Shown: positions 20,579-55,349, numbered from the stretch's first letter. The stretch: 64,000 nucleotides of DNA from Candidatus Caenarcanales bacterium (GCA_020050435.1 JAGVKQ010000011.1:3350-67349); one strand, 5' to 3'. Numbers and translations are program-made. Notes: generated by a model from the sequence alone, not told the origin.

Positions 20579-21619
20579 TTGTTTTTAAGAAAGGTATTTA
20601 TGGCAATTAGACCCACTCATTTTTTCCCAGCTCAAAGCTACGTAAAAGGAAGACCTAGTTATTCAGTTTCATCTAAACTTAATAGAACCTTGGGTGTAGA
20701 GGTTGCTCCAGAGTTGACTATGAAAGACTTCTTGAAGACCTCTCTTCAATATTTAAATAGAGATGAAATTTTAGGTGGACGTATAGGGGACATTAATCAT
20801 GTAATTGGCTCTATAGAAGGAAAATGTAGAACTGCTGGTTCAGTTCTTTCCCCAGTTGAAGAACAAATTTTATTATCAATGGGAATCTATGAAAGAAGTA
20901 CTTATATGGATAGAGATACGACTGAACTTGTTCATAGAGTAGTACCAAAAGATGTAACTTATGATGAATGGGGAAAATTGATTGATTCAGAAAAGCCTAT
21001 TTTAGCTCATGAAGCTTTTGATTTATTTGGTTCTTATAGTAATGCTGATAAAGCAGCTATGCTAGAAGTTGTTCACCGTGAAATGACACTTACTTCAGAA
21101 GCTAAATCTACATTAGCTGACTTAAAATCAACACCTATTCCAGCACCCATTGAATTGTTAAAAGCCCATACGGTTTTTAGAGCATTACCAAATGAATCTG
21201 AAATTGCTAAATATGAAAAACTTAGTGTTAGTCTGGGTGGGCTAGTAGCAGTTTTATCACATTATGAAAGTAGACATGCTGATCATAAATATGAACACGC
21301 TTTGCAAGATGTAAATGATATTTATAGAGACTTTGAAACAATACTTTCTCATAAGGCTGATGATTTTGGTTCTAGATTTGGTGTTGAAATCCATAATTTT
21401 AGAGCTGCTAAAGTTGAAGCTCACTTTAGTACATTGAAAGAGTTGCAAGCAAATTCTTTAGATAGTAAATCTATTAATAAGGCTGCTTCTGAAGCACTTT
21501 TAGCTTTAGAAGAACTATTTCATGAGTCTAAGACTTTACCGCCAGAAAGAAGACGTTTAAATGATGTATCTTTTGAAAGAATGAGAACTGCATTAACAAA
21601 GCTTACTCTAGTAGCTTAA
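20579..21619 (+). CDS. Hypothetical protein (346 aa) with a His-rich segment and no recognisable domain
   Basis: Long ORF with a plausible start at MAIRPTHFF. It contains HYESRHADHKYEH. It is convergent with the HerA-like ATPase gene. Confidence 0.5.
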   Translation: MFLRKVFMAIRPTHFFPAQSYVKGRPSYSVSSKLNRTLGVEVAPELTMKDFLKTSLQYLNRDEILGGRIGDINHVIGSIEGKCRTAGSVLSPVEEQILLSMGIYERSTYMDRDTTELVHRVVPKDVTYDEWGKLIDSEKPILAHEAFDLFGSYSNADKAAMLEVVHREMTLTSEAKSTLADLKSTPIPAPIELLKAHTVFRALPNESEIAKYEKLSVSLGGLVAVLSHYESRHADHKYEHALQDVNDIYRDFETILSHKADDFGSRFGVEIHNFRAAKVEAHFSTLKELQANSLDSKSINKAASEALLALEELFHESKTLPPERRRLNDVSFERMRTALTKLTLVA

Positions 21620-21630
21620 AGCTCAGCAGC

Positions 21631-21764
21631 TAACTTATAGTGCTAATCCAGAAAATTGTCATTGCGAGGAGGATGAAATCCGACGAAGCAATCTTGCTTG
21701 ACCGATATTGCTTTGTGAGATTGCCACGTCGCCACTTCGTGGCTCCTCGCAATGACACAGTTCA
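21631..21764. mobile_element. MITE-like nested palindromic element (family A: gtcattgcgag...ctcgcaatgac) flanked by a 15-bp direct repeat TTAAAGCTCAGCAGC at 21616-21630 and 21765-21779
   Basis: The outer inverted repeat is tgtcattgcgaggagg / cctcctcgcaatgaca and the inner one is gaagcaatct..agattgc. The perfect 15-bp flanking duplication contains the stop codons of both convergent genes. Confidence 0.6.
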
Positions 21765-23435
21765 TTAAAGCTCAGCAGCAGCTAATTCACCACGTTTAAT
21801 AATTTCTTCTTTAGTTAGCTTTTCTTCACTAGAAACTGATTTGTAAAATTCAGAATCATATCTTCTAGTACGCACTACAATAGGCATTGGCATAGCATAG
21901 CCAAACATTAATACTTCTTGTTTAGGGTTTAGCTGGGAAAGAATAGCTTTTAATTCCTGTCCACCAGACTCCCCTACAAACACGGCATTGATATCATTCT
22001 CATCATTTAAAAGAAGAGTGGCTCTCGTTCCTATCTGAGACATTATTTCATTGTCGATTCCTGATGGTCTTTGATCTACGATTAAAAGGGTGACATTATA
22101 TTTTCTAAGTTCACGAGCTATGATGCCAAAAGTTGAAAATCTGGCTACCTGTGGAGATAAAAACTTATGTGCTTCTTCTATAGTGATAACTAATCTCTTA
22201 GGCGGCTGGTATTTATCTGGTGCTAATAAATACTTTTCAGTCATATCTACATAAGCTGCATGGATGTGTCTGGTAATAATGTTTGCAGCTAGCATATAAC
22301 TTTTTAAATTACTAAGTCTTCCAAACTGTAAAACTACACTTCTGCCACTGGTTAGAAAGCTAAGAATTTTTTTAATGCCATCAAAACTAGTGACTGATTT
22401 TAAGTATTTTACTGAATCTACTAATGTGTTTAATTTTCTTTGAAGAGCTAGTATGGAACCCTGATTAGCACCATACTGAGCACAGAACTCTTCTATGTGT
22501 CCTACTGTCATATTGCAAAGTTTATTAAACCAGTCTCTTTCATATTCTCTTTGAATCATTCGAGCATGATCTATCATAGCCTCAGATAAGCCTAGTTCGC
22601 TTTGAAGTAGTTCTAAGTCTTCTATATCTATCTGGCTAAATGCTATTTCTAATGTCTGTGCATCTTTAAATGTATAAGATTTATTGTCTGGATCTAGTGT
22701 GAAAACTTCTATCTTGTCGTTAAATAATTGCTTTAATCCTTTTGATGAGGCTTGTTTTTCATCTGTACCTTGCCAGCCGTACTCATTGTGCATGTCAAAA
22801 ATTAATACACTGGCAGCATCTTTTTTCAATATTCCTGAAAGAAGTATTCTGCTCAAGAATGATTTTCCTGTTCCAGACTTTCCAAACACAGCATTTGATC
22901 TTTCTACAAACTTTTCAAGATTTATACAAAGTGGAATGTCCATTTCAGCAGGATAGCCAATGTGAAAGTTTTTATTATTCTTTTCATCTTTCCCAAAGAT
23001 TTCTTCTATGTCATTTTCTGTGGCTTCATATACAGAGGAGAAGTGTGGTGGAATGGTTTTTACTTTAGGGACATCTTCTAAAGACTTTTTATTAGTTAAG
23101 TCGACCATTAAGAATGGAGTTAAATGTACTAATCCATATACAGAAGTACCCTTTAAAACCTCTTTAATAAAACTATCGTTAGGTGATGGAATATGATTTA
23201 AGAATTTAGCATTAGAAGATTGAAGTTCTATATCTGTAACCATTGAGAAAAATTTATTTCTTTCTCCTTGTATGACTACGAATTTCCCAATTCTTAATTT
23301 TTCAATATCATAGCTATTGTCTAATTTTAAAAGTAAGCCTTTAGTGAAGGATCCTGAGACCACCTGACCAACGAGGCTTTGTGCTAACGTGCCTACGTTC
23401 CCACGTTCCGACGAATCTGTTTTATAGTCCTTCAT
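21765..23435 (-). CDS. HerA/FtsK-like P-loop ATPase (DUF87-type, HerA-like helicase)
   Basis: 556 aa with an N-terminal beta-barrel-like region, Walker A FGKSGTGKSF, the HerA-typical ITIEEAHKF block, and Walker B/Arg-finger region LLIVDQRPSGID. Confidence 0.75.
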   Translation of the reverse strand: MKDYKTDSSERGNVGTLAQSLVGQVVSGSFTKGLLLKLDNSYDIEKLRIGKFVVIQGERNKFFSMVTDIELQSSNAKFLNHIPSPNDSFIKEVLKGTSVYGLVHLTPFLMVDLTNKKSLEDVPKVKTIPPHFSSVYEATENDIEEIFGKDEKNNKNFHIGYPAEMDIPLCINLEKFVERSNAVFGKSGTGKSFLSRILLSGILKKDAASVLIFDMHNEYGWQGTDEKQASSKGLKQLFNDKIEVFTLDPDNKSYTFKDAQTLEIAFSQIDIEDLELLQSELGLSEAMIDHARMIQREYERDWFNKLCNMTVGHIEEFCAQYGANQGSILALQRKLNTLVDSVKYLKSVTSFDGIKKILSFLTSGRSVVLQFGRLSNLKSYMLAANIITRHIHAAYVDMTEKYLLAPDKYQPPKRLVITIEEAHKFLSPQVARFSTFGIIARELRKYNVTLLIVDQRPSGIDNEIMSQIGTRATLLLNDENDINAVFVGESGGQELKAILSQLNPKQEVLMFGYAMPMPIVVRTRRYDSEFYKSVSSEEKLTKEEIIKRGELAAAEL

Positions 23436-35229: not shown

Positions 35230-35979
35230 ATGGATGTAAACGCTGAAGTTAACAATTTAATTTCTAAAGCATTTTCTCTAGTTAATGAGGATAAAAATAA
35301 TGAAGCTTTTGAAATTGTAAATGCCATTTCTTCTGATAAATATGTAAATAACTTAAATAAAGATCATTTCCAGGCAATTGGAGATATTTGCTTGTCTTTA
35401 GGCAAGTTTGAATTAGCTAAAGATTTTTACCTGAAAGCTGAAAATCCAGAAGCAGCAAGCCTGGCTCTAATTGCTCTTGATGACTTAGATGAAGCTAGCA
35501 AGTTGCTTCTAAAGTGTCCAAAGTCCCCACCATCAACATGGTGTAATTTTCTAATTGATGTATTTAATGAAAAAGCAATTAAACAATGGCCTTCTTTTTT
35601 AGAAATCAGACACTTTATGGAATTAACTGTTTATAGTCTTTTACTGGGAAAGAGGCATTATTTTATATCACTTCTTCTGAAAAGGTTAAATCGATTATTA
35701 GATATAAATATAGATTCTGAAAAGTTAATAGGCTATGCATATTTTCATTATGGTGACTTAGACAATGCAATTAAATTTTTAAAGTCTTCTATTCGTAAGA
35801 ACCGTACGGATGGAGAAATATATTTTGTTCTTGGGCAGATAAGCTTAGAAAAAGGAGATTTAAAAGAGTCACTTTCAATGCTTGAAAATGCAAAAACATT
35901 ATTGGCTAACCATTACCCTAGTAAGAAATTATATGAAGAGGTGAAGGCTGCTTTGTCATTGCGAACCCTGAAAGGGTGA
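35230..35979 (+). CDS. Hypothetical helical, TPR-like protein (249 aa). Its last 9 codons and the stop lie inside a family A palindromic repeat.
   Basis: It is an ORF only. The C-terminal ALSLRTLKG* is encoded by the repeat gctttgtcattgcgaaccctgaaagggtga. Confidence 0.4.
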   Translation: MDVNAEVNNLISKAFSLVNEDKNNEAFEIVNAISSDKYVNNLNKDHFQAIGDICLSLGKFELAKDFYLKAENPEAASLALIALDDLDEASKLLLKCPKSPPSTWCNFLIDVFNEKAIKQWPSFLEIRHFMELTVYSLLLGKRHYFISLLLKRLNRLLDINIDSEKLIGYAYFHYGDLDNAIKFLKSSIRKNRTDGEIYFVLGQISLEKGDLKESLSMLENAKTLLANHYPSKKLYEEVKAALSLRTLKG

Positions 35980-36038
35980 AGCAATCTCACAAGCAAAATC
36001 GGTCAAGTAAGATTGCTTCGCCTTTGGCTCGCAATGAC
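35955..36038. repeat. Family A nested palindromic repeat, copy 2 (gtcattgcgaaccc...gggctcgcaatgac with inner gcaatctcac...agattgc)
   Basis: Read directly from the sequence, between convergent genes. Confidence 0.6.
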
Positions 36039-36056
36039 ATTTGCATGTTGAATCCC

Positions 36057-36641
36057 CTATCTGGTTTCACCTTTAATCTGTACCTTGTAATTTACTCTAT
36101 TATAATATTCAAGAATGTCATTCATTTTTGACTTTTGTTCTTCTAAATCAGAATAAATATACCTTGTCATTTTTATCATATGTGAAAAGCCCATAGCTAT
36201 TGTATTTGCTAAAACAGTACCGATAGTAACTGCTGCAAAAACCAATAAACTGTTTCCTAGGGCATAATTCCCATTGTATAAGCTAGTGCCTATCATGATT
36301 AATTGTAGAAGCCCAAGTACACTGCCTAATGCAACTATAAAAATACCAGCGACTTTAAATGATGTATCCAGTGAGTCTATGCTTTTTTCATTTATAATCT
36401 CTTTTGAAAGACCGCTTGATAATTCTTTTTGATTATAATTTTGATTAAATAATGTTGTTTCAATGGTTTTATCAATCTCATTATGATTATTTTGTTCTTG
36501 TGGCATTCTGTTGCCATTGGTTGGTTTATAAATTTGTTTTTTCTCTTTTAAAGAGGTTTTTAAATTTTCTGTTTTAATGTATCCATCTAATAGAGGGCTA
36601 TGTAACCTTTTAGGGTTCTGATTTTGATAATTTTGACTCAT
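36057..36641 (-). CDS. Hypothetical membrane protein (194 aa) with an N/Q-rich N-terminus and two C-terminal TM helices
   Basis: The ORF has the TM helices FIVALGSVLGLLQLIMIG and LLVFAAVTIGTVLANTIAMGF. Its start overlaps the fabD 3' end by 32 bp. Confidence 0.4.
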   Translation of the reverse strand: MSQNYQNQNPKRLHSPLLDGYIKTENLKTSLKEKKQIYKPTNGNRMPQEQNNHNEIDKTIETTLFNQNYNQKELSSGLSKEIINEKSIDSLDTSFKVAGIFIVALGSVLGLLQLIMIGTSLYNGNYALGNSLLVFAAVTIGTVLANTIAMGFSHMIKMTRYIYSDLEEQKSKMNDILEYYNRVNYKVQIKGETR

Positions 36642-37572
36642 AAATTGAAATAAATTCCTCTAATGATTGATAATCAAAAATGTTATAGCAATGTAAATCT
36701 GGATTTATTTTTTTAACCAAGCCAGTTAAAACTTTGCCCGGTCCAACTTCAATAACTGCATCAACTCTTTGTTTGACGAGGTTCGTAATAGTTTGTGTCC
36801 AAAAAACTGAAGATGTCATTTGTTTTTTTAACTTGTCCAAGATAATATTCGAGTCAGTTGATGCTTGACCATCTAGATTTTGAAAAATGGGAATAGTTGC
36901 ATTGTTTACATTGGATATCTTAGAAAGTGCTTCAGTAAAGGATTTTGAAGACTCATTCATGAGTGGTGAATGAAATGCTCCACTAACAGGCAAGATAATT
37001 GCTTTCCCGCCAAGTGCTTTTACTCTTTCTGGAATTGTTTCAAATGCAGACTTTTCACCTGATATTACAAATTGATTAGGACTGTTGTAATTAGCAATTA
37101 TTATTTTCCCTTTGAAAATCTCCTCATTTAAAAGACTTTCTATTTGGTTTAAGTCTAAATTTAATATTGCTGCCATTGCTCCACTAGGGGCATTTTGCAT
37201 AAGTTCGCCACGAAGTAATACTAAATTAATTGTATCTCCAAGACTTAAAACGTTTGAATACCATAGAGCTGTTAATTCTCCTAAGCTATGACCACAAGTG
37301 CCTACTATATCTAAAGATAATTTCTTTTCTTTTAACTTCTCATCTAATAACTGTGAAAGAGCAATTGAAACTGTAATTATAGAAGGTTGAGTATTTTTTG
37401 TTTGATTTAACTCATCTTGAGGACCATTTAAGAAAATATTAGAGAGATCTCTTTTTGCTAAATTGTCTAATATCTTAAATAGCTCTTTTGCTTTGGGTGA
37501 TTTTTCAATTAAATCTAAACCCATACCTACTTTTTGTGACCCTTGTCCAGGAAATAAAATAGCAAACTTCAT
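36610..37572 (-). CDS. fabD: Malonyl CoA-acyl carrier protein transacylase
   Basis: The active-site motif is GHSLGE, the N-terminus FPGQGSQ is present, and the size is 320 aa. Confidence 0.9.
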   Translation of the reverse strand: MKFAILFPGQGSQKVGMGLDLIEKSPKAKELFKILDNLAKRDLSNIFLNGPQDELNQTKNTQPSIITVSIALSQLLDEKLKEKKLSLDIVGTCGHSLGELTALWYSNVLSLGDTINLVLLRGELMQNAPSGAMAAILNLDLNQIESLLNEEIFKGKIIIANYNSPNQFVISGEKSAFETIPERVKALGGKAIILPVSGAFHSPLMNESSKSFTEALSKISNVNNATIPIFQNLDGQASTDSNIILDKLKKQMTSSVFWTQTITNLVKQRVDAVIEVGPGKVLTGLVKKINPDLHCYNIFDYQSLEEFISIYESKLSKSEP

Positions 37573-37597
37573 TCACGATCTCCTTTGTACGGACAAT

Positions 37598-39427
37598 TCA
37601 TGAATTGTCCCTCACTAAATCCATAATCTTTTGTAAGATGTCATTCTCTTCATCTACAGTTTTTGAGTCTTTTAATTGCTCTGTTAAAAATTTCATTTTT
37701 TGTTTGTTCTGTACCCACCACTGTATCCACTCTTTTGCTTCTTTAATAGCTCGTATTTTAAAGGATTTATCGTAATGCCCCTCATTCATTTCTAATTTTA
37801 ATGCAATATCTGAAATTATGGACATTATATTTTTAAATTCATTAAATTCTAAAATCAGTAAATCGACTATTCCTTGAGCTGAATAATCTCTTTTTTCCAT
37901 GTTGTCCAGATAATCTTTTATAAGTTTATGTTTTTCATCTACAAACTCTAAAGCTGAAAGCTCAATTTTTATCTCATCACTATAAGGAAAAGAGTTTATA
38001 TATAACGTTAATAACTCTAGCTCTGCATGTTTAAATCTTTCTATCGTATGCATTTTAAACATAGTATCTTCTGATTCTTTGCGAGGCTGTTTATATGTTC
38101 TTTTAGGTCTTGTTTTATCCCTGAGCTTCATTGATATTAGTTCTTCATCTATCTTTAAGAGATGAGATGCATAATTTACATTTTCTTTCTGCTCAATAGG
38201 ATCAGCTGTAGAGGTTATGACATCCATCAACTCTTCAAGAATTTCTTTTTTTTCAATTTCACTACCTGAATCTTTGTATTGGGTGGTGACCTTTTCGATA
38301 ACAAATTTAGAAATAGGCTTACTGTTTTCTATTTTAGTCTTAACTTTTTCATATCCCTCTGTGTTAAGAGATTCGTCTAGATCTTTTGAAATTAAATCAC
38401 TTACTACTCTTAAATCAAGAGTTACAAATTTAGATATTTCTTGTGAAATCTTAAATGTTCTTTCAGCTGCTTTCTGCCCTGCTGCATCTGTATCCAGACA
38501 CAAACATATTTTTTTTGAGTTAGTGTATTTAGCGAGTAATCTGGCTTGTTCTTTTGTAAGAGCTGTTCCCAGAGTCGCCACCGTATTTGTAAGCCCATGT
38601 TGGTGAGCTGTTATAACATCTAAATACCCCTCAGTTAAAATTACATAATCTAAATTTTTAATGGCGTCTTTTGCATAATTCAATGCATAGAGGTTGAATC
38701 CTTTGCTAAAAATTAACGTTTCTGGAGAATTAATATACTTTGCATCTTCATTCGTAAGTGTTCTGCCACCAAAACCTATAACATTATTTTTTTCATTATA
38801 AATAGGAAATATTACTCTATTTCTAAATCTGTCATAGTAAGAATTTTGATTCTCTCTTGGTATAAAAAGTCCTGAAGCTACAATTAATTCCTGTTGATAA
38901 TTTTTTTCTTTCGTTAGGTGGTGATATAGAGATTCCCAAGTGTTTTGAGCATACCCCACTTCAAATTTCTCAATGGTTTCTTTTGATAATTTTCTTTTAT
39001 TTTGAACATAGTCAAGAGCAATTTTGGCATCAGAATTATTTGAATATAAGTTTTCTTTAAAAAAATTAAGTGCAACTCTATTCAAATCATATAGTTTTGT
39101 CTTTATTTCAATTTCAGCTTTATTTTCATCGCCATATTCTACTTTTAGTCCATATTTTGTAGCTAATTCTGGAATAGCTTCTGCCCATTTTTTCTTATTA
39201 ATAAGAGCGTAAAACGTTATTAAGTCTCCACCTGTACCGCAGGAAAAGCATTTAAAAATTCCTTTTTGTGGATGTATCTGTAACGAAGGCTTATGATCAT
39301 CATGAAATGGACAGATGGATACATATCCTCTACCTGATTTCTTCACAGGTACGTATTCTGCAATCAATTCCTGTATAGGGACTTGTGTTTTTATTTGTTC
39401 AACAAGCTCTTTAAAGTTCTTTATCAT
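37598..39427 (-). CDS. dnaG: DNA primase
   Basis: The zinc finger CPFHDDHKPSLQI...CFSCGTGGD, the Toprim domain (EGYLDV, DTD) and the C-terminal helicase-interaction domain are all present. Confidence 0.9.
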   Translation of the reverse strand: MIKNFKELVEQIKTQVPIQELIAEYVPVKKSGRGYVSICPFHDDHKPSLQIHPQKGIFKCFSCGTGGDLITFYALINKKKWAEAIPELATKYGLKVEYGDENKAEIEIKTKLYDLNRVALNFFKENLYSNNSDAKIALDYVQNKRKLSKETIEKFEVGYAQNTWESLYHHLTKEKNYQQELIVASGLFIPRENQNSYYDRFRNRVIFPIYNEKNNVIGFGGRTLTNEDAKYINSPETLIFSKGFNLYALNYAKDAIKNLDYVILTEGYLDVITAHQHGLTNTVATLGTALTKEQARLLAKYTNSKKICLCLDTDAAGQKAAERTFKISQEISKFVTLDLRVVSDLISKDLDESLNTEGYEKVKTKIENSKPISKFVIEKVTTQYKDSGSEIEKKEILEELMDVITSTADPIEQKENVNYASHLLKIDEELISMKLRDKTRPKRTYKQPRKESEDTMFKMHTIERFKHAELELLTLYINSFPYSDEIKIELSALEFVDEKHKLIKDYLDNMEKRDYSAQGIVDLLILEFNEFKNIMSIISDIALKLEMNEGHYDKSFKIRAIKEAKEWIQWWVQNKQKMKFLTEQLKDSKTVDEENDILQKIMDLVRDNS

Positions 39428-39548
39428 TTTCTTAGCTCAAGACAAGCTTGAGCTTCCTATGGTCAACCTGTTCCAACTGCTCGCATTTGCCGAGTAAATC
39501 GGACAAATGCTTTCCTCGTCAATTTGGATATTTATCCCGGCTTTTATA

Positions 39549-40580
39549 TTATGGTATTTGACCGACGGTATCAAGCCCCATCTTTTCATTAAATCCAAGC
39601 ATTAAATTCATATTTTGAATAGCTTGACCAGATGCGCCCTTAACCATGTTATCAATGGAGCTTACTAGGATTAATCTATTTGTTTTTTCATCTTTCAGAG
39701 GAGTTAAATGGCAGAAATTTGTATATCTGACATTTTTAGTATTAGCATACATGTTTTCAGGTAAAACTTTAACAAAGTACTCATTTTTATAAAAAGCTTT
39801 ATATAAAGCATGAATTTCTTTTTGATTAATTTTAACTTTCAAGTCTGCATAAATTGTGCTCAATATTCCTCTGTTTATTGGTAAAAGATGTGGGGAGAAA
39901 GTAGCATTTATATTTTTTCCTGCTAATTTTGATAGCTCATTTTCAATTTCTGGTAGGTGTCTATGTTTTCCAGCTAATGCATAAGGTGAAAAAGATTCAT
40001 TTACTTCACAAAAATGTGTCTCTGGTTTTGCTTGTTTGCCGGCGCCGCTAGTACCTGACTTAGAATCAATAATAATAGAATTAAGTTTAATTAATCCACT
40101 CTTTAATGCAGGAGCTAATGCAAGGATCGCTGAAGTCGGATAGCAGCCTGGGTTTGCTATAAATTGAGATTTTTTAATTTGACTTCTGTATAGTTCTGGT
40201 AAGCCATATGTAACTTTTATTTTTTTCTTGAAAGTTGTTTCTAGTCTGAAGTCAGCACTTAAATCCACTATTTTTAATTTACTGTTTTCACTTAAAAGCT
40301 TAGGAATGTAATCTTTTGAAAAGCCATGTGGAGTAGCCATAAATACAACATCACATTCATTTGCAATTTTTTTTGCATCTGTTTTTTTACATTTGTCTTC
40401 TAGAACTCCATAAAAAGTCGGATATATATCAGAGAATTTTTTATCAGCATGTTGCTCAGATGCTAAGTATATGATTTCTATATTAGGATGATTTAATAAT
40501 AATTTTACAAGCACTACACCTGTATAACCAGTAGATCCTAAAATACCTATTTTTGTCTTTGTCCTTACCATTTGTTTCAT
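39549..40580 (-). CDS. argC: N-acetyl-gamma-glutamyl-phosphate reductase
   Basis: The N-terminal NAD motif is ILGSTGYTG. The active-site block NPGCYPTS is diagnostic for ArgC. Confidence 0.9.
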   Translation of the reverse strand: MKQMVRTKTKIGILGSTGYTGVVLVKLLLNHPNIEIIYLASEQHADKKFSDIYPTFYGVLEDKCKKTDAKKIANECDVVFMATPHGFSKDYIPKLLSENSKLKIVDLSADFRLETTFKKKIKVTYGLPELYRSQIKKSQFIANPGCYPTSAILALAPALKSGLIKLNSIIIDSKSGTSGAGKQAKPETHFCEVNESFSPYALAGKHRHLPEIENELSKLAGKNINATFSPHLLPINRGILSTIYADLKVKINQKEIHALYKAFYKNEYFVKVLPENMYANTKNVRYTNFCHLTPLKDEKTNRLILVSSIDNMVKGASGQAIQNMNLMLGFNEKMGLDTVGQIP

Positions 40581-40592
40581 TATATACCAAGC

Positions 40593-40617
40593 AGAGACGC
40601 CCCATCGGGGCGTCTCT
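40593..40617. promoter_or_regulatory. Perfect GC-rich 11-bp-stem hairpin (agagacgcccc atc ggggcgtctct) in the divergent argC/queE intergenic region
   Basis: Read directly. It is strikingly GC-rich for this genome and is not positioned as a terminator, since both flanking genes point away from it. Confidence 0.5.
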
Positions 40618-40660
40618 CCAACTTGATTTAATATACTTTTTATATTGCTACAATACTGCT

Positions 40661-41425
40661 ATGGATAATAAAAACCTCTACTTATCTGAAATTTTTTCTG
40701 CTATACAAGGGGAAGGCCCAATAGTAGGGGTAAGGCAAATATTTCTAAGATTTAGTGGTTGTGATATTCGGTGTGTTTGGTGCGATACGCCTGAAAGCCT
40801 TGTAAAAGTTAAAGGTTGTAATTGTGAAACCAAAGCAGGATCTAGAAAATTTGAAGTAGAAACAAATCCCATTTCAAATTTAAAGCTTATAAATTTAATT
40901 TCTAAACTGCAGCCAGAAATTCATCATAGTTTTTCTTTAACAGGAGGTGAGCCCCTTTTACAGAATAAAGCAATGCTTGAAATCATTCCAATTTTAAAAG
41001 AAAAATTTCTGCTTCCTATTTACCTTGAAACGGGTGGGCATAGAGATGATAAGCTTGCTAAAGTTATCCATTTGATTGATTATGTTTCAATGGATTTTAA
41101 ACTCCCTACATCAGCTAGAACAGTCTCATTCTGGGATAAGCATAAAAGATTTTTGTCCATTGCACTAAAATCAAAAAATGTAAAAAAAATATGGGTTAAG
41201 GTCGTTATTACCAGTACTACTTCAATGGTTGAACTTCAAAAAGCAGTAAATCTTGTTAAAAGTTTCAAATCAGATATTGATATTTTTATGCAGCCAGTTA
41301 GCCCTATAAATGGAATAAAACCACCTGATGAACTTTCTATACTTTCTATTCAGTCTAAGCTTTTAAAAGTTTATCCACATATTAGAGTTCTTCCACAGGT
41401 ACATAGATTGATGGGACAGAAGTAA
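40661..41425 (+). CDS. queE: 7-carboxy-7-deazaguanine synthase-like radical SAM protein
   Basis: LYLSEIFSAIQGEGPIVGVRQIFLRFSGCDIRCVWCDTPES matches the QueE N-terminal cluster motif. The ORF-track start at 40553 runs through the GC hairpin and is unlikely. Confidence 0.8.
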   Translation: MDNKNLYLSEIFSAIQGEGPIVGVRQIFLRFSGCDIRCVWCDTPESLVKVKGCNCETKAGSRKFEVETNPISNLKLINLISKLQPEIHHSFSLTGGEPLLQNKAMLEIIPILKEKFLLPIYLETGGHRDDKLAKVIHLIDYVSMDFKLPTSARTVSFWDKHKRFLSIALKSKNVKKIWVKVVITSTTSMVELQKAVNLVKSFKSDIDIFMQPVSPINGIKPPDELSILSIQSKLLKVYPHIRVLPQVHRLMGQK

Positions 41426-41433
41426 ATTAGTAA

Positions 41434-41694
41434 TTAATTCCTCGGTGTTACACTAACTTCGAATTCTGTCATTGCTCCCATTAAACCTAATAAATATGGG
41501 GACTCTTGGATTTGGACTTTTATGGTTATTGGTTTGTCATTTTTATAGTCGTCTATAAACGTAATTTTTGCTTCTTTGTTTGAAAAAGGATCAGTTAATG
41601 ATGTGGAAGAAAAATTTCCACTTATGGGAATATTCCTACTATCTTTTTTTAAAAGTGACTTTGGATCTATGTATATATTTTCTTCTTCATCCAA
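41434..41694 (-). CDS. Hypothetical 86-aa ORF with a TTG start, possibly a frameshifted C-terminal continuation of the upstream pilin-like gene
   Basis: It overlaps the 3' end of the pilin-like ORF by 28 bp in a different frame at an A-rich tract (gaagaagaaaatatata). Confidence 0.3.
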   Translation of the reverse strand: MDEEENIYIDPKSLLKKDSRNIPISGNFSSTSLTDPFSNKEAKITFIDDYKNDKPITIKVQIQESPYLLGLMGAMTEFEVSVTPRN

Positions 41695-42353
41695 GATGTT
41701 AGGTGTTGGCTCAGCTGTAGCTTCATTAGACTCTCCAGTTTCAGAACCTTCGCCAGCATATTTTTTTGAATAAATAATAGATATTCTTTATCTTCTCGAA
41801 GTGTTGATTTCTTTAATTCTAAAATTGGCGGAGGGAAAGGCCATTTCTTTTCCCCATCTTCTGTATATGATTTACTTTGATCAAGGTATTTAATACATTT
41901 TAAAATATAGTAGATTTCTTCGTTTTTAGGTTTTCTTTTCCAGTTGATTTTGTATAAGTCTTCAGTTCTTTGTTTTGGCTTAGCAAAGTAATAAAGTATG
42001 TAGTCATATCCAATAACATCTCCAGTCGGTTCATAAATCTTAGGTTTTGTGAAATAAATATATGGTGAACTTTGAATAGCATCATCTGGAAATGGTACTC
42101 CATACACAGCAGACTCATTTGTTGATATTCTGTTTTTATTTGCATCTCTTAAATCCTCTGAAATCGATCTTATTGCTAGTTTTGCCTTAACCTGAGATAG
42201 TCCTCTGCTATAACTTTGGTAAAATAGTTTCCAGCCCTGATCAGAATAACCGTATAATAGACTAGTTACAATTGCTAAAACAGCAATTACTGTCATTGTT
42301 TCAAGAAGACTATATCCTTTATTATTTCTAAATTTTATAAATGAAAGACTCAT
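41667..42353 (-). CDS. Type IV pilin / pseudopilin-like protein with a class III (prepilin) signal
   Basis: The leader MSLSFIKFRNNKG is followed by YSLLETMTVIAVLAIVTSLL. This gives a G(-1) and E(+5) prepilin peptidase motif plus a hydrophobic helix. The ORF-track start at 42431 is probably too far upstream. Confidence 0.6.
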   Translation of the reverse strand: MSLSFIKFRNNKGYSLLETMTVIAVLAIVTSLLYGYSDQGWKLFYQSYSRGLSQVKAKLAIRSISEDLRDANKNRISTNESAVYGVPFPDDAIQSSPYIYFTKPKIYEPTGDVIGYDYILYYFAKPKQRTEDLYKINWKRKPKNEEIYYILKCIKYLDQSKSYTEDGEKKWPFPPPILELKKSTLREDKEYLLFIQKNMLAKVLKLESLMKLQLSQHLTSWMKKKIYT

Positions 42354-42946
42354 TAAGAAAAAATCTAACTCCCTTGAGAAAAAGTATACTAGTTTTTTCT
42401 TTTTTAACTTTAATATATATACTTCTGCCAATTTTATCTATTAACGCTTCTACCAGTCTTGATTATCCTATTGTGCCCCAAAGACCTACACTTAGACAGC
42501 TTTATTTATCCTTGTTAAACATTCCTATATATAAGTATGAAAAATCAAAAACTATGATTAAAAAAGATGTCTCTCTTTTTGATTTAGATAAAAAAAACAA
42601 TGATAATTTTGAAGTTAATGAAATATTGATAGATAAAAACTATTTAAGTGGCTTTTTAGTAGATTCATATGAGAAAAGTTATATGTTAGGATCAGAAACT
42701 TTATTAATGAATTCGTTGGACTCTGCTTTAGAATTAAAGCTTGCTCTAAAATACCTAGATGTTGATGAAAAGAAAATTATTGTGGTAGATAATATGCAAA
42801 ACGCCCTTTTAATTAATATATTAAATGACAATAATGACACTTCATTGGTTAAAATTTTAGGTTACTCTCCTAAATCTGATAATATTTCTGTAAATGGAGT
42901 TGTAGAAAAATTGGCTACATTAATAAGTGAAAAAACGAAAAAATAA
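42341..42946 (+). CDS. Hypothetical exported protein (201 aa)
   Basis: The N-terminal hydrophobic segment is LVFSFLTLIYILLPILSINAS. There is no recognisable domain. Confidence 0.4.
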   Translation: MKDSLRKNLTPLRKSILVFSFLTLIYILLPILSINASTSLDYPIVPQRPTLRQLYLSLLNIPIYKYEKSKTMIKKDVSLFDLDKKNNDNFEVNEILIDKNYLSGFLVDSYEKSYMLGSETLLMNSLDSALELKLALKYLDVDEKKIIVVDNMQNALLINILNDNNDTSLVKILGYSPKSDNISVNGVVEKLATLISEKTKK

Positions 42947-43547
42947 AGACTTTAAACCATATTTGGTGGCTATTACCGGAAACTTTGGATCTGGTAAAAG
43001 TGCTGTAGGGAGTCTACTAAAAAATGATGGGTTCTTACTCGTTGACACAGATGAAATAGTAAATGAAATATTAAAAAATATAAATCCTGTTACGGAGAAG
43101 ATACTTGCTGAATTTGGAAGTGATATTAAAAATCTAAATAGTGACTATTTGATAAACAAAAAAAAATTAGCTTCAATTGTTTTTATTGATGAAACTAAAC
43201 GGAAAAAACTAGAGTTTATTATTCATCCTGCTGTTGAGCAAACCTTATCTACTATATTTTCTTTAAGCCAATTGGAAAAAGTCATTTTTGTTTTAGTCCC
43301 ATTACTGTTTGAATGTAATTTAGAAGGAAATTACCATGAAGTCTGGTGTGTGAAATGTGATAAGAATGTCCAGTTGTCTCGACTTGAAGGTAGAGGCTTT
43401 TCTATTGAAGAAGCTGAAAAAAGAATATCTTCTCAAATGTCTCAAGATGAAAAAGAAAGTCTTTCTGACTTTGTTATTGATAACTCAGCCCAAATAGAAA
43501 ATACTAAATCTCAAATTGATAAAAGATTAAAGAACGGGTTCAATTAA
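42927..43547 (+). CDS. coaE: Dephospho-CoA kinase
   Basis: The Walker A motif is VAITGNFGSGKS and the size is 206 aa. Confidence 0.85.
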   Translation: MKKRKNKDFKPYLVAITGNFGSGKSAVGSLLKNDGFLLVDTDEIVNEILKNINPVTEKILAEFGSDIKNLNSDYLINKKKLASIVFIDETKRKKLEFIIHPAVEQTLSTIFSLSQLEKVIFVLVPLLFECNLEGNYHEVWCVKCDKNVQLSRLEGRGFSIEEAEKRISSQMSQDEKESLSDFVIDNSAQIENTKSQIDKRLKNGFN

Positions 43548-44105
43548 CCCATAATTCCCATCTTTTCTTAGATAGAGAGTGTTTATTTGAGTTGTGCTTG
43601 CATTAATGAAAACATAAAAGTCATGATCAATCATATCTAGGTGATGTAAAGCTTCTTCAGGGGTCATAGGATGAAGTTTGAATTTTTTAGATTTGATTAT
43701 CTTGCCTTCTGAGTGATCTTTTCCATTTGAATTACCATTGACTAACGATGGACTCACTAAGTCCGTAGGTAGGTCTGGTCTGTCTGCATGTTGTAAGCTT
43801 CTATAATGTTTGGCTTTGTATCTTTGTATTTGCCTGTCTAATTTATCTACTACAGTGTCAATGCTTGCATACATATCGTCAGTAGCTTGTTCGGATCGAA
43901 TAATCTTTCCATCTAAAGATATAGTTACTTCTGTAATGTTGTTTTTTGTGATTCTAGGATTTTTTTCTACACTTAACTTCACTCTGACTTCATGGTCTTT
44001 GATTATCACATCATAATGATTTTGTAATCTTGTAAGTTTTTCTGTTATATAGTCTTTGAGTGCTTCAGTCAGTTCTATATTTTTTCCTTCAATTATTATT
44101 TTCAT
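43527..44105 (-). CDS. hpf: Ribosome hibernation promoting factor (long HPF, sigma-54 modulation protein family)
   Basis: MKIIIEGKNIELTEALKDYITEKL is the canonical HPF/YfiA N-terminus. The long form has a C-terminal dimerisation domain. The true start is probably the internal ATG at 44105. Confidence 0.85.
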   Translation of the reverse strand: MKIIIEGKNIELTEALKDYITEKLTRLQNHYDVIIKDHEVRVKLSVEKNPRITKNNITEVTISLDGKIIRSEQATDDMYASIDTVVDKLDRQIQRYKAKHYRSLQHADRPDLPTDLVSPSLVNGNSNGKDHSEGKIIKSKKFKLHPMTPEEALHHLDMIDHDFYVFINASTTQINTLYLRKDGNYGLIEPVL

Positions 44106-44228
44106 ATTTGCTCCTAATAAGATTAAACCATAAATAATTATAGTTTGCTTGCTGTTTTTAGACCATATAAGTTCATCCTTTAGCATGAATTACTTGTAAG
44201 CAAATGATTCCCACTGTAGAATTATGTT

Positions 44229-45131
44229 ATGAAAAATGAAGTCTTTATAGGTTTGACATATGGTGATCCTGCTGGTATAGGCCCTGAAATATTACTTAAA
44301 ACTTTAAGTAACTGGCGATTTAAATTTCTACCTTTAATATTTGGTAGTAATGAATTATCAATGAAAAACATTAAGCAAGGCTCCCCAAACAAAGCTTCAG
44401 GGCTTGACTCTTATAATGCATTGCTCCAAGCAGTTTCTTCTGCTAAAGAAAAGAAGATTATTGCATTAGTTACCGGACCAGTTTCCAAGTATGCTGTAAA
44501 TCTCGCTGGGAAAAAATTCGAAGGTCAGACTGATGAAATAGCAAAACAGTGTAAATTATCTAGTAGTAGTGTGATTATGCTTTTTGCTGCAGCTGATTTT
44601 AGAGTTGCATTATTCACAAGACATATTCCACTGAGAAGCGTATTTAAACATTTAACTAAATCCAAATTAGAAGATTTCATTATTTTATTAAATAAAGAAC
44701 TAAAACAAAAATTAAAAATTAAAAAGCCAAAGATAGCAATTCTTGGCTTGAATCCACATGCCAGTGAGAATGGATTATTTGGTGATGAGGAAGAGAAGAT
44801 TATAATTCCAGTTCTGAAAAAACTTAAAAAGAAAGGAATTAATGTTTTTGGTCCTCTTTCTCCTGATGCTGCATTGGCAGATGCAGGGAAGTTATATCTT
44901 TCTGAAAAATCACAGCCCTATGATGTTTATGTTTCTTTTTATCATGATCAGGCTCTTCCTGTGTTTAAAGCAGTAGCTGGATTTAAAGGTGTTAATGTAA
45001 CTTTAGGGTTGCCATTTTTAAGGGTTTCCGTAGATCATGGTACTGCTTTTGATATTGCTGGAAAAGGAATTGCTTCTAATGAAGGATTGTTGTCTGCTAT
45101 TAGGTTTGTGGAAGATATCGTAAAGCCGTAG
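44229..45131 (+). CDS. pdxA: 4-hydroxythreonine-4-phosphate dehydrogenase
   Basis: GDPAGIGPE at the N-terminus, the metal-binding region NPHASENG and the HDQ/GLPF blocks match PdxA. Confidence 0.9.
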   Translation: MKNEVFIGLTYGDPAGIGPEILLKTLSNWRFKFLPLIFGSNELSMKNIKQGSPNKASGLDSYNALLQAVSSAKEKKIIALVTGPVSKYAVNLAGKKFEGQTDEIAKQCKLSSSSVIMLFAAADFRVALFTRHIPLRSVFKHLTKSKLEDFIILLNKELKQKLKIKKPKIAILGLNPHASENGLFGDEEEKIIIPVLKKLKKKGINVFGPLSPDAALADAGKLYLSEKSQPYDVYVSFYHDQALPVFKAVAGFKGVNVTLGLPFLRVSVDHGTAFDIAGKGIASNEGLLSAIRFVEDIVKP

Positions 45132-45153
45132 AGACGTTGTATACAATGTAAAA

Positions 45154-45229
45154 TGTCATTCTGAAGGAGTGAAACGAACAAGAATCTATTTTCGTTGATG
45201 GATTCTTCGCTAACGCTCAGAATGACACT
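45154..45229. repeat. Family A-variant nested palindromic repeat (gtcattctgaagg...gctcagaatgac with inner cgaacaagaatc...gattcttcgc), abutting the folE stop codon
   Basis: Read directly. Confidence 0.5.
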
Positions 45230-45827
45230 AGCCCCTAATCAGCGATAGTACTTCTGCTCTTGTAGCCTGGTTAGTTTCAAAAATACCTTTTAAAACAGAT
45301 GTAGTTGTTTTAGCTCCTGGTTTTTTAATTCCACGCATAGTCATGCACATATGTTCAGCTTCTATGACTACGGCTACTCCCATGGGATTTAGTTTTTCAA
45401 TTATTGCATTAGCAATTTGCATTGTTAGTCTTTCTTGTACTTGTGGTCTTTTGGAAGCGGTTTCTACCACTCGGGCTAATTTGCTAAGTCCTGTAATAAT
45501 TCCATTTTTTGGTATGTATCCTACATGTGCTACTCCGAAAAATGGTACTAAATGATGCTCACACATACTATAAAAAGGAATATCTTTAACTAGAATTACT
45601 TCAGAGTGATCTTCTTTAAAGGTAATTGAGATTTCATCTTTAGGATCTTTATCTATTCCTGAAAATAATTCAAAATACATTCTGGCTACTCTGTTAGGAG
45701 TATGTAATAAACCATTTCTTTCTGGGTTTTCACCTACTGCTAGTAGGATTTGTTTCACAGCATTTTCTATGACTTCAATTTTCTCTTTTCCTGCTTTGTT
45801 TAAAATATGTTCAATATCGTTATTCAT
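45228..45827 (-). CDS. folE: GTP cyclohydrolase I
   Basis: [10 protein letters not shown] and the HVGYIP block are FolE signatures, and the size is 199 aa. Confidence 0.9.
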
Positions 45828-45885
45828 TGTTTAATTTTAACCCACTTGTATTTTTAGGTTTTCTTTAGAATTTAACCTTACTATT

Positions 45886-45984
45886 GTCATTGCGAGCCCT
45901 GAATGAAATGAAGGGCGTGGCAATCTCAGTTGACCAATATTGTATTGTGAGATTGCTTCACTCATTTCATGGGTTCGCAATGAC
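45886..45984. repeat. Family A nested palindromic repeat, copy 4 (gtcattgcgagccc...gggttcgcaatgac with inner ggcaatctca...tgagattgc)
   Basis: Read directly, in the folE-ilvH intergenic region. Confidence 0.6.
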
Positions 45985-46054
45985 TTTTATCCTTGATTTC
46001 TTCGCACATCTTTGCAAATAATGATAAACTGTAAAACACTAATTTAGAGGTCAC

Positions 46055-46588
46055 ATGCAAAGAGTATTATCAGTTTTAGTAGAAAATGAATCAGGTGTTT
46101 TAACTAGAATCGCTGGTCTTTTTTCCAGAAGAGGTTTTAACATTGAATCCTTAACGGTGGGACCTACTGAAAATCCTTCTTACGCAAGAATTACAATATC
46201 AGTTGCTGGTAGTAATCGCGCTGTTGAACAAATAACTAAACAGCTTCATAAATTAATCAACGTAATTAAAATTACAGATTTAACTGAATTAAGTTTTGTT
46301 GATAGAGAACTTGCTTTGATAAAAGTATCTTCTAATGCCACAACAAGGGCAGAAATTATTCAAATTGCAGATTTATTTAGAGGACATATTGTAGACGTTG
46401 CTGAAGATGTTTTTATTATAGAAGTTACAGGCGATCAAGGAAAAATAAATGCCATTGTTCATTTGTTAGGAAAGTTTGGAATTAAAGAAATAGCCAGAAC
46501 TGGTAGGGTAGCCCTATCTAGAGGCGTGAAGATCGACCAACAATTAGCACCTAACAGGATACCCCTGAGAATGGTTACTAGCACTTAG
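46055..46588 (+). CDS. ilvH: Acetolactate synthase small (regulatory) subunit, ACT domain protein
   Basis: MQRVLSVLVENESGVLTRIAGLFSRRGFNIESLTV is the canonical IlvH/IlvN ACT domain, and the protein is 177 aa. No large-subunit gene is adjacent. Confidence 0.8.
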   Translation: MQRVLSVLVENESGVLTRIAGLFSRRGFNIESLTVGPTENPSYARITISVAGSNRAVEQITKQLHKLINVIKITDLTELSFVDRELALIKVSSNATTRAEIIQIADLFRGHIVDVAEDVFIIEVTGDQGKINAIVHLLGKFGIKEIARTGRVALSRGVKIDQQLAPNRIPLRMVTST

Positions 46589-46690
46589 GGAAGACCATTT
46601 AAACCATAGGACTATTGAGACTATAACGTTTTAAAGTATGGTCTTATCGTCTCCATAGTCTTTATTGTCTTTCCCTTAGTCTTCCCATAA
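46589..46690. repeat. Family B palindromic repeat, copy 1 (agaccattt...ataggactattgagac...atggtcttatcgtctccatagtcttt)
   Basis: It shares about 90 bp with 50054-50140 and carries the GGACTAT / ATAGTCC inverted cores. Confidence 0.5.
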
Positions 46691-46764
46691 CAATCATTTG
46701 CTTTACTACAGATGTACAGATGTCCTACTGGGATACTATTTATTCTTTCTAAGGAATATTTTTT

Positions 46765-50053: not shown

Positions 50054-50140
50054 AAGACCATTTGACAATAGGACTATGGAGACCATGTCGTCTCACAAAA
50101 ATGGTCTTATGGTCTCCATAGTCTTTATAGTCTACCCCTA
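50054..50140. repeat. Family B palindromic repeat, copy 2 (taggactatggagaccat ... atggtctccatagtcttta)
   Basis: Its arms form an approximately 18-bp inverted repeat, and it is a near-copy of 46589-46690. Confidence 0.5.
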
Positions 50141-55018: not shown

Positions 55019-55105
55019 GGACAGGTGTTCGAGTGGTTTATGAAGATAGTCTTGAAAACTATTGATGCCGTAAGGTATCCGGGGGTTCGAATCCCTCCCT
55101 GTCCT
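55019..55105 (+). tRNA. tRNA-Ser (anticodon UGA), class II with a long variable arm
   Basis: Manual fold: acceptor ggacagg/cctgtcc, D-arm ttc/gaa, anticodon stem atagt/actat with loop cttgaaa (anticodon TGA), a long variable arm, and T-arm ggggg-ttcgaat-ccctc. CCA is not encoded. Confidence 0.8.
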
Positions 55106-55162
55106 AATTTTAGTTTCAAGTTGTCAGTTACAAGTTGCAAGGAAAACTCAGAAAAAAATTTA

Positions 55163-55192
55163 GGTTACAAGGTTCTCCTTGTAACTTAAAAC
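55163..55192 (+). terminator. Hairpin ggttacaagg ttctc cttgtaac followed by ttaaaactt, downstream of tRNA-Ser
   Basis: It has a 9-bp stem, read directly. Additional inverted repeats (agtttcaag / cttgaaact) flank it. Confidence 0.4.
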
Positions 55193-55349
55193 TTAAGTCT
55201 TGAAACTGTCGTCATACATAATTAAAAGTTTTCTATGTAAAACACAATCTTATAAGAGTATAAAATTTAGATTTATTTATTGTATTAACGTGTAATATCT
55301 TACTGATAAAATTTATATATTTATTGCACCTATCTAAGGATATTATTTT

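Follow-up and report, generated by a model that had tools for sequence, protein, structure and literature searches.

Inverted pairs of REP-like hairpins in a Candidatus Caenarcanales genome and their empty sites in relatives

A 64,000-nt stretch of DNA from a Candidatus Caenarcanales bacterium (GCA_020050435.1 JAGVKQ010000011.1:3350-67349), referred to here as the window, contains three copies and one sister-family variant of a short repeat in which two hairpin units, similar to repetitive extragenic palindromic (REP) sequences, face each other across a spacer. On its sequence features, the family is assigned to the superfamily of CGTC-tagged REPs, as kin of Neisseria dRS3 and of the Rickettsia palindromic elements (RPE) RPE-4 and RPE-6. 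It is probably a non-autonomous element similar to REPINs (REP doublets forming hairpins), copied through a single-stranded DNA hairpin by an enzyme that acts in trans. This is a known, under-studied kind of repeat, and what is new is a member in an unusual, low-GC host.

Inverted hairpin dimers in the window

Three copies share the exact ends (T)GTCATTGCGA…TCGCAATGAC(A), and their features, together with those of the variant, are the following:

21657-21758, plus strand: copy 1, a 102-nt inverted dimer TGTCATTGCGAGG...CCTCGCAATGACA with ends complementary at 15 of 15 positions, also recovered by a profile hidden Markov model (HMM); left apical hairpin GGAT-GAA-ATCC, right apical hairpin GCCAC-GAA-GTGGC; situated between the convergent ends of a 346-aa open reading frame (ORF) and a HerA-like gene
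35954-36039, minus strand: copy 2, an 86-nt inverted dimer with a spacer that runs in reverse complement to those of copies 1 and 3
45154-45227, no strand assigned: the variant, a sister-family dimer TGTCATTCTGA...TCAGAATGACA in which the foot ATTCT:AGAAT replaces ATTGC:GCAAT
45885-45985, plus strand: copy 3, an inverted dimer of 101 nt, from either side of which the genes folE (start at 45827, minus strand) and ilvN (start at 46055, plus strand) diverge

The decamer GTCATTGCGA has exactly six exact matches in the window, which form three inverted pairs (21658/21756, 35955/36038 and 45886/45984). When one mismatch is allowed, seven matches are found against 1.7 expected, a number that none of 100 shuffles reaches, and an inverted-repeat scan returns the same three pairs together with the inner palindrome of copy 2. 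All four dimers are predicted to fold into long nested hairpins (-50.7, -41.7, -49.3 and -28.9 kcal/mol for copies 1, 2, 3 and the variant, with folding z-scores of -7.3, -7.3, -7.5 and -5.7, respectively), and their G+C content is 39-51%, against 33% for the window. A profile HMM of 171 arms, all of them from foreign organisms, detects in the window the six arms of copies 1-3 and no others (E values from 2e-7 to 1e-4), and neither this model nor the mismatch scans found further copies, solo arms or degenerate arms in the 64 kb. The repeats are genuine and well above chance, and the two-level palindromes that a first, sequence-only reading had described as three copies and one variant are borne out by the exact pairs, the folds and the HMM.

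A copy is built from two REP-like hairpin units that face each other across a short spacer. Read inward from either end, a unit comprises the unpaired tag (T)GTC, ATTGC, GAG or GA, a short variable hairpin, GAA or GTG, GCAAT, and a tail that is CTC or CTT in the window. Within a single arm, ATTGC is complementary to GCAAT, which gives a stem-loop made up of a 5-bp foot, a conserved internal loop whose two sides are GAG and either GAA or GTG, and an apical hairpin that often carries a GAA/GNA triloop, as in GCGAAGC; alternatively, arm can pair with arm to form one long hairpin. The apical hairpins differ in all six arms (GGAT-GAA-ATCC, GCCAC-GAA-GTGGC, ACCCT-GAA-AGGGT, GCC-AAA-GGC, GCCCT...AGGGC and ACCCA...TGAGT). 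The tag is TGTC in five of these arms and AGTC in one, and TGTC in both arms of the variant, which keeps the same layout while its foot, ATTCT:AGAAT, is changed on both sides at two foot pairs. The right arm of the variant, GTCATTCTGAGCGTTAGCGAAGAATCC, matches arms in Mucilaginibacter (L034) and at a further locus, L181.

The spacer common to the three copies is non-palindromic and 20-21 nt long, with the form TTGACCGAT(A/T)TTGC... (the TTGACCGATATTGC spacer). That of copy 1, GCTTGACCGATATTGCTTTGT, defines the plus orientation, which copy 3 shares and which is inverted in copy 2; the three versions, GCTTGACCGATATTGCTTTGT, AGTTGACCAATATTGTATTGT and the reverse complement of ACAAGCAAAATCGGTCAAGT, are about 85% alike. 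Among some 270 elements from other organisms, none has the window spacer. The four window copies are all dimers and, because the spacer is conserved and lineage-specific, the comparison shows the dimer with its spacer as the putative unit of amplification.

Empty sites in relatives and effects on adjacent genes

The window ends within the start of a 16S gene, and the FolE homologues that are 72-77% identical carry the label Candidatus Melainabacteria. Going by these homologue names, the source, with its G+C content of about 33%, is probably a melainabacterium, from a non-photosynthetic group related to cyanobacteria. The syntenic loci that could be compared come from relatives at three distances: L125, L126 and L127, with a FolE 93% identical to that of the window; L121 and L128 (GCA_964602915.1), with 82%; and L124, with 80%. 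A comparison of orthologous gene ends, which the sequence-only reading had proposed as a check, found empty sites at copy 2, at copy 3 and at the variant.

At the site of copy 3, the folE-ilvN intergenic region is collinear on both sides and a window block of ~133 nt is absent in L125/L126 and in L128; the dimer accounts for 101 nt of this block, with ~28 nt to one side of it and ~6 nt to the other. The variant site, between folE and pdxA, is likewise empty in L125/L127, L128 and L124. In L125/L127 the folE stop (…GGGGCTAG) leads straight into the 3' end of pdxA, with an overlap of 21 nt between the genes; the overlap is 4 nt in L124, the genes lie 24 nt apart in L128, and in the window they are separated by the 74-nt variant and ~18-22 further nt. 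At the site of copy 2, a tetratricopeptide repeat (TPR) gene overlaps the convergent 183-186-aa gene by 8 nt in L121 and L124, and in the window 77 nt, in which the dimer lies, stand between the two stops. The HMM of foreign arms detects no arms in ~122 kb of the relatives, against six in the 64-kb window. Since the closest relative and both more distant ones are without the inserts, one gain per site is more parsimonious than repeated exact losses, and the distribution implies that copies 2 and 3 and the variant are recent gains, acquired after the split from the relative with the 93% identical FolE. No target-site duplication is visible at the three junctions compared.

The DNA that accompanies the dimers at these sites, and at copy 1, is the following:

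21616-21633, no strand assigned: direct repeat TTAAAGCTCAGCAGCTAA, whose partner TTAAAGCTCAGCAGCAGCTAA lies at 21765-21785; the two flank a 131-nt insert (21634-21764) that contains copy 1
36040-36081, minus strand: non-palindromic DNA beside copy 2, which encodes the extended tail ...YKVQIKGETR* of a 194-aa ORF (36057-36641, minus strand)
45986-46012, no strand assigned: co-inserted sequence of ~28 nt, TTTTATCCTTGATTTCTTCGCACATCTT, beside copy 3, absent at the empty site of L125

The co-insert beside copy 3 may be a decayed extra half unit, to judge from the likeness, assessed by eye, between GATTTCTTCGC and the inner-arm sequence GATTGCTTCGC. A promoter-like match, TTGATT-18 nt-AATAAT, lies upstream of ilvN (45993-46022; a consensus match only), with its -35-like hexamer within the co-insert and its -10-like hexamer in native sequence conserved in L125. 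The insertion of copy 3 may have rebuilt the promoter region of ilvN and displaced that of folE. The repeats that flank copy 1 follow the pattern TTAAAGCTCAGCAGC[AGC]TAA (18/21 nt); the distal one, at 21616-21633, overlaps the stop of the convergent 346-aa ORF and looks like a relic of the end of the HerA-like gene. This gene keeps its native (L)AAAEL* tail at copy 1, encoded by the partner repeat at 21765-21785, and GELAAAEL* is common to orthologues at 78-80% identity. A long target duplication was considered as a feature of the family and set aside, copy 1 being the sole case among 131 elements examined. Besides the element insertion, the pdxA 3' end (45103-45131, compared with 10580-10620 of L125) shows an apparent 20-nt indel (GGCTTTACGATATCTTCCAC, minus strand), in an alignment that is ambiguous; with it, the PdxA tail is a different one.

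With regard to the genes themselves, the comparison shows inserts that entered overlapping or abutting convergent genes, parted them and replaced the tails of two proteins. The TPR ORF (35230-35979) takes its TGA stop, the codons for S-L-R-T-L-K-G and, before these, some of a Leu codon from bases 35954-35979 of copy 2, and its product ends ...EEVKAALSLRTLKG*, the last 7-8 residues and the stop being derived from the element. Twelve TPR homologues end 2-11 residues past a conserved VK, with unrelated tails; a close homologue, P0005, was tried as a witness of the ancestral tail and discarded, as it is an N-terminal fragment only. On the other side of copy 2, the 194-aa ORF is six residues longer than its orthologues, which end ...YKAR* or ...YKTK*. 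At the variant, the tail of PdxA is DIVKP*, against TLAPNQR* in L125, and it differs because pdxA no longer reads through the overlap with folE. FolE, in turn, keeps its native ...LIRG* and TAG stop (45228-45230), which the variant adjoins directly; because the same stop follows ...LIRG in relatives without the element, the variant supplies nothing to folE, and copy 2 is the only one that supplies coding sequence.

These results bear on several claims of the sequence-only reading. It had the copy at 35955 encode the last 9 residues of the 249-aa ORF, and the copy does run into this ORF, with a contribution of 7-8 residues. It had also credited two copies with supplying stop codons or C-terminal residues, which is true of copy 2 and not of the variant, although its observation that the variant at 45154 abuts the folE stop is confirmed by the native TAG. 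Finally, it had placed all copies between gene ends, a description from which copy 3, lying between the divergent starts of folE and ilvN, has to be excepted. The lengthened tail of the 194-aa ORF beside copy 2 is not among the features it had noted.

Other differences and repeats in the window lie apart from the dimers. Between ilvN and the conserved gene that follows is a slot that contains a PIN-domain gene and a 66-aa ORF in L125 (8640-9320), a ParE/RelB-like pair in L128 (8760-9226) and no ORF of at least 60 aa in the window (46589-46764), and it appears to be a variable toxin-antitoxin slot. Three inverted repeats of the window are unrelated to the family: one at 55112-55207, with 36-nt arms that are 78% complementary, just after a tRNA (55019-55105); one at 50072-50123, with perfect 15-nt arms at 50072/50109; and one at 2591-2670, with 25-nt arms at 2591/2646.

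The family across bacteria and its kinship

A scan for GTCATTGCGA-N55-85-TCGCAATGAC in one genome per bacterial species matched at least 120 stretches. The sequence-only reading had named a lack of further copies in the genome as its refutation; taken across bacteria, such a lack is clearly not what is seen, with these matches and at least 120 more in viral contigs. The taxa named here, and all family-wide counts of arms and elements, rest on the elements among the matches listed; the search pattern fixed no more than the 20 end bases and, as the wider set was gathered with a dimer pattern, it is silent on the proportion of solo units. The family occurs in Alphaproteobacteria (Bradyrhizobium and other Hyphomicrobiales, sphingomonads, Rhodospirillales, Micavibrio and Rickettsiales, including Ca. 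Tisiphia), in Gammaproteobacteria and Burkholderiales (Coxiellaceae, Solimonas and other Gammaproteobacteria, as well as Burkholderiales) and in Bacteroidota (Mucilaginibacter, Pedobacter, Flavobacterium and Sediminibacterium). It is also present in Desulfobacterota, Ignavibacteriaceae, Nostoc, Rivularia, Chloroflexota, Planctomycetota, Nitrospirota, Patescibacteria and Berkelbacteria, Zixibacteria, Margulisbacteria and one Clostridiaceae bin.

The architecture of the window arms recurs throughout this set. In 236 of the 268 arms of 134 elements, ATTGC is followed after 7-43 nt by GCAAT, and this in turn by the tail CCA (117), CTC (50) or CTT (19), CCA being the form of most bacteria. Among 264 arm ends, 67% have a C 5' of GTC and 29% a T. 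Arm interiors take the form GAGCG-N-AGCGAA, GAGGAGCGAAGCGACGAA or longer, with length modes of 12 and 18 nt, and the apical triloops are GAA (65), GCA (37) or GTA (14), carried by 61 different stems. Apical stems of at least 5 bp are found in 23 arms, against 2 in shuffled controls, and 92 of 105 dimers are heterodimers of two unlike arms, each arm with its own hairpin. Between sister families the foot changes on both sides (ATTGC:GCAAT, ATTCT:AGAAT and ATTCCC...GGGAAT). Flanking duplications are absent from 120 of 132 elements, and the few matches measure 1-3 nt.

The same loci also hold classical GTCATTCCCGCGAAAGCGGGAATCCAG dimers and variant-like GTCATTCTGAGCG.AGCGAAGAATC units. Classical dimers of the CGTC-1 family share loci L005, L083 and L095 with the present family, and L095 belongs to a Rickettsiaceae genome, Ca. 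Tisiphia. In composite arrays (L181/L182 1013-1123; L071 2747-2882; L095 2681-2798), units of sister families (ATTCC.., ATTCT.., ATTGC..) or partial units stand next to one another, in the manner of clusters of bacterial interspersed mosaic elements. The consensus element was found in one of 50,697 GenBank phages and nine of 72,556 plasmids, the latter mostly large replicons of Novosphingobium, Methylosinus and Methylocystis, plus Calothrix and Legionella, and the family is chiefly chromosomal. Phage-borne spread was considered and set aside, as curated phage genomes are essentially without the element and plasmids rarely carry it, although at least 120 viral contigs of IMG/VR show the end pattern.

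According to the published description (Di Nocera, De Gregorio and Rocco 2013, PMC3733652), CGTC-tagged REPs bear an unpaired CGTC tag, which is often TGTC, stems that start with A-T, and a CCA tail; most of them form inverted dimers, in many cases of unlike units, whose spacers are conserved in a given genome, and they are found mainly in Alphaproteobacteria and also in other phyla, where they are sometimes translated. The same source equates CGTC-1 with Neisseria dRS3 and R. conorii RPE-6, and CGTC-4 with RPE-4, and the R. conorii CGTC-1 peptides that it gives, SFPRKRES/VIPAKAGI, back-translate, as read here, to GTCATTCCCGCGAAAGCGGGAATC. The present family has all the corresponding features, namely a C/TGTC tag, an ATT...AAT foot, a 3-nt tail, inverted dimers with outward-facing tags, and conserved spacers; like the published families, it occurs in several phyla, most of all in Alphaproteobacteria, and now and then forms a translated part of a protein. 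It departs from the 8-9-bp stem and 4-5-nt loop of the published units in having a 5-bp foot, an internal loop, a hypervariable second hairpin and a unit of 30-45 nt. The family is related to the published CGTC families but structurally distinct, a separation that follows the published descriptions and not a comparison of the ATTGCGAG...GAAGCAAT units with the published consensus.

Among the elements of Rickettsia, RPE-7 is 99 nt long, has 223 copies in R. conorii and shares with RPE-4 and RPE-6 the end motif ATGAC. Copies 1 and 3 measure 99 nt from GTC to GAC and have the same end motif; identity of the family with RPE-7 is suspected from this agreement in length and end motif, not from a comparison of sequences. 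Searches of other resources returned nothing of weight: Rfam gave no match over the elements of the window at the gathering score, and at E<=1 only chance-level matches at five element-bearing loci; the end and arm sequence strings matched nothing but unrelated primers in the full text of the paper library that was searched. Seven open translations of the copies had no NCBIfam match at E<=10, in a release that presumably includes the RPE models, and no meaningful match in Pfam.

A resemblance to Correia elements (also NEMIS) and to Coxiella QMITE2 is more general, these too being short palindromic repeats, located where genes end, from which neighbouring genes can gain residues or stops and which may affect transcripts. 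Correia elements have a TA duplication, and QMITE2, which carries a GTAG-type REP, has direct repeats of 7-11 nt, whereas the family described here is without duplications. Hence, of the likenesses that had been drawn from the sequence, those to RPE and REP elements are upheld by the tag, the foot, the tail, the inverted dimers, the empty sites and the element-encoded tail, while that to Correia elements is not, given the lack of flanking duplications and arms that are themselves hairpin units.

Mode of spread

In the explanation considered probable, that of a REPIN-like element of the CGTC superfamily, the dimer would be mobile but not autonomous, with a hairpin of single-stranded DNA as the intermediate in its copying. 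An enzyme supplied in trans would read its tag and foot, and the best available candidate for this enzyme would be a HUH/Y1 transposase of the REP-associated tyrosine transposase (RAYT) type; the model for copying follows the IS200/IS605 and RAYT/REP systems. Once inserted and transcribed, the hairpins would probably act as barriers or stabilisers at 3' ends, a role secondary to spread. The REPIN-RAYT systems (Bertels and Rainey; TnpA-REP of E. coli) offer the same inverted REP hairpins within a long hairpin, amplified as a dimer with its spacer, a tag 5' of the foot, no target duplication, insertion polymorphism between relatives and a mostly chromosomal location. Moreover, the Neisseria dRS3 dimer has been described as a REPIN, with the master sequence ATTCCCGCGCAGGCGGGAATC, and tied to a Group 2 RAYT (Bertels and Rainey).

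Several points weigh against this explanation. The tag here is YGTC, whereas all experimentally studied RAYT substrates have a GT[AG]G guide, and REPs have been described as species-specific, whereas the arm sequence of this family is conserved across phyla. No cognate RAYT is seen: an ORF with a HUH...Y-x-x-NP signature is absent from the window and from 120 loci, as judged with a crude regular expression (H-x-H ... Y-x(1-3)-NP), a weak test, RAYTs being single-copy genes and the window covering 64 kb of the genome. Where two elements lie 1-3 kb apart (L017, L018, L027, L043 and L114), the long ORFs between them, which were listed and not annotated, include no obvious transposase. Published accounts of mobilisation disagree: against the tie to a Group 2 RAYT given above, CGTC repeats 'apparently lack a dedicated transposase', in the words of PMC3733652, and the Alphaproteobacteria, rich in the family, are reported to have few or no TnpA-Y1 genes, the REPs linked to RAYTs having GT[AG]G guides (Quentin et al.). 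A simple cut and insertion of the dimer explains neither the 18-28 extra nt by which the insert exceeds the palindrome at every site compared nor the 18-21-nt duplication that flanks copy 1. The same end pattern occurs in at least 120 viral contigs of IMG/VR (L210-L329), which fits poorly with strictly vertical inheritance. Nearest-neighbour DNA parameters, finally, lend only modest support to the folding of lone arms: the mean energy is -4.3 kcal/mol, where arms with shuffled interiors reach -3.5 kcal/mol, and no more than 65 of 122 arms fold better than their own shuffled versions. Mini-hairpins of the d(GCGAAGC) type are unusually stable as DNA, a stability that such parameters miss. As for the IMG/VR matches, either many of the contigs contain host DNA or uncultivated viruses bear the element.

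A more novel reading, which is unlikely, is that a putative, widely conserved enzyme, rather than lineage-specific RAYTs, propagates the family; on single-stranded DNA, it would read the GNA mini-hairpin as well as tag and foot. The unit YGTC-ATTGC...GCAAT-CCA is near base-for-base the same in Alphaproteobacteria, Gammaproteobacteria, Bacteroidota, Cyanobacteria/Melainabacteria, Chloroflexota, Planctomycetota, Nitrospirota, Patescibacteria and others, and such an enzyme would explain this near-identity across phyla together with the abundance of the family in lineages reported to be poor in Y1 genes.

More generally, a mechanism other than a RAYT is made conceivable by the YGTC tag, by the few Y1 genes of the host clades richest in the family and by junctions that are untidy. 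A conserved host enzyme acting on single-stranded DNA, a recombinase of the IS110/IS1111 type with such palindromes for its sites, or a switch of template at hairpins in the course of replication or repair might each spread or maintain the dimers. The lack of a known dedicated transposase, noted above, is in keeping with this, as are the paucity of Y1 genes in family-rich Alphaproteobacteria, an arm framework nearly identical in distant phyla where known RAYT/REP pairs are species-specific, and the extra DNA at the junctions with the 18-21-nt duplication at copy 1. IS1111 is known to target REP-type palindromes, and filamentous phages do so as well, at Neisseria dRS3. Nevertheless, no positive evidence singles out any specific alternative enzyme, and the only published association of a sister family, that of Neisseria dRS3, is with a Group 2 RAYT, so that spread by one of these routes is judged quite unlikely.

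A functional element in cis, that is, a terminator, a stabiliser of mRNA 3' ends or a protein-binding site that selection keeps at gene ends and that is repeated on account of its function, is very unlikely as an account of the family. Three of the four copies do lie directly at gene 3' ends, their hairpins are very stable (-29 to -51 kcal/mol), short T runs adjoin one side of each window copy, and REPs, according to published reports, act as mRNA stabilisers and transcription terminators and are bound by gyrase and IHF. However, the orthologous sites of four relatives work without the element, with genes that even overlap; adjacent T runs are not enriched family-wide (34 of 129 sites, against 29 of 129 control sites); a terminator scan calls no copy and Rfam gives no match; and copy 3 lies between gene starts, in an element that is nearly strand-symmetric. 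A role of individual copies as terminators or RNA stabilisers is possible and would not define the family.

Lastly, a classical MITE (miniature inverted-repeat transposable element) of the Correia/NEMIS type, which would be a deletion derivative of a DDE-transposase insertion sequence (IS) with GTCATTGCGAG terminal inverted repeats, moved as double-stranded DNA by cut-and-paste or copy-paste, has in its favour the size of ~85-100 nt, inverted ends that are perfect over 11-15 nt, the presence or absence among relatives and the precedent of Coxiella QMITE2, a REP-containing MITE with Bradyrhizobium relatives, but it is highly improbable in view of the missing target-site duplication in 120 of 132 elements, the conserved unpaired tag base outside the palindrome, the covarying apical stems and compensatory foot changes, neither of which plain terminal inverted repeats need, and the absence of a full-length IS with such ends from 120 + 120 loci, though no systematic search for one was made.

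For genome annotation, the window is a reminder that short tails such as ...SLRTLKG* and small ORFs with CHCE.., VIA.., ..LAMT or ..RND.. are repeat-derived. The empty sites in four relatives constitute a clean natural experiment for a poorly understood class of repeats, in which dimers entered where convergent genes overlapped, separated these genes and rewrote two protein tails while leaving the conserved sequence intact. With arms shared across phyla, spacers that are lineage-specific and no dedicated transposase known, the family also sharpens the question of what moves CGTC/YGTC REPs; and should a conserved enzyme prove to be responsible, the family would be a handle for finding it by phylogenetic profiling.

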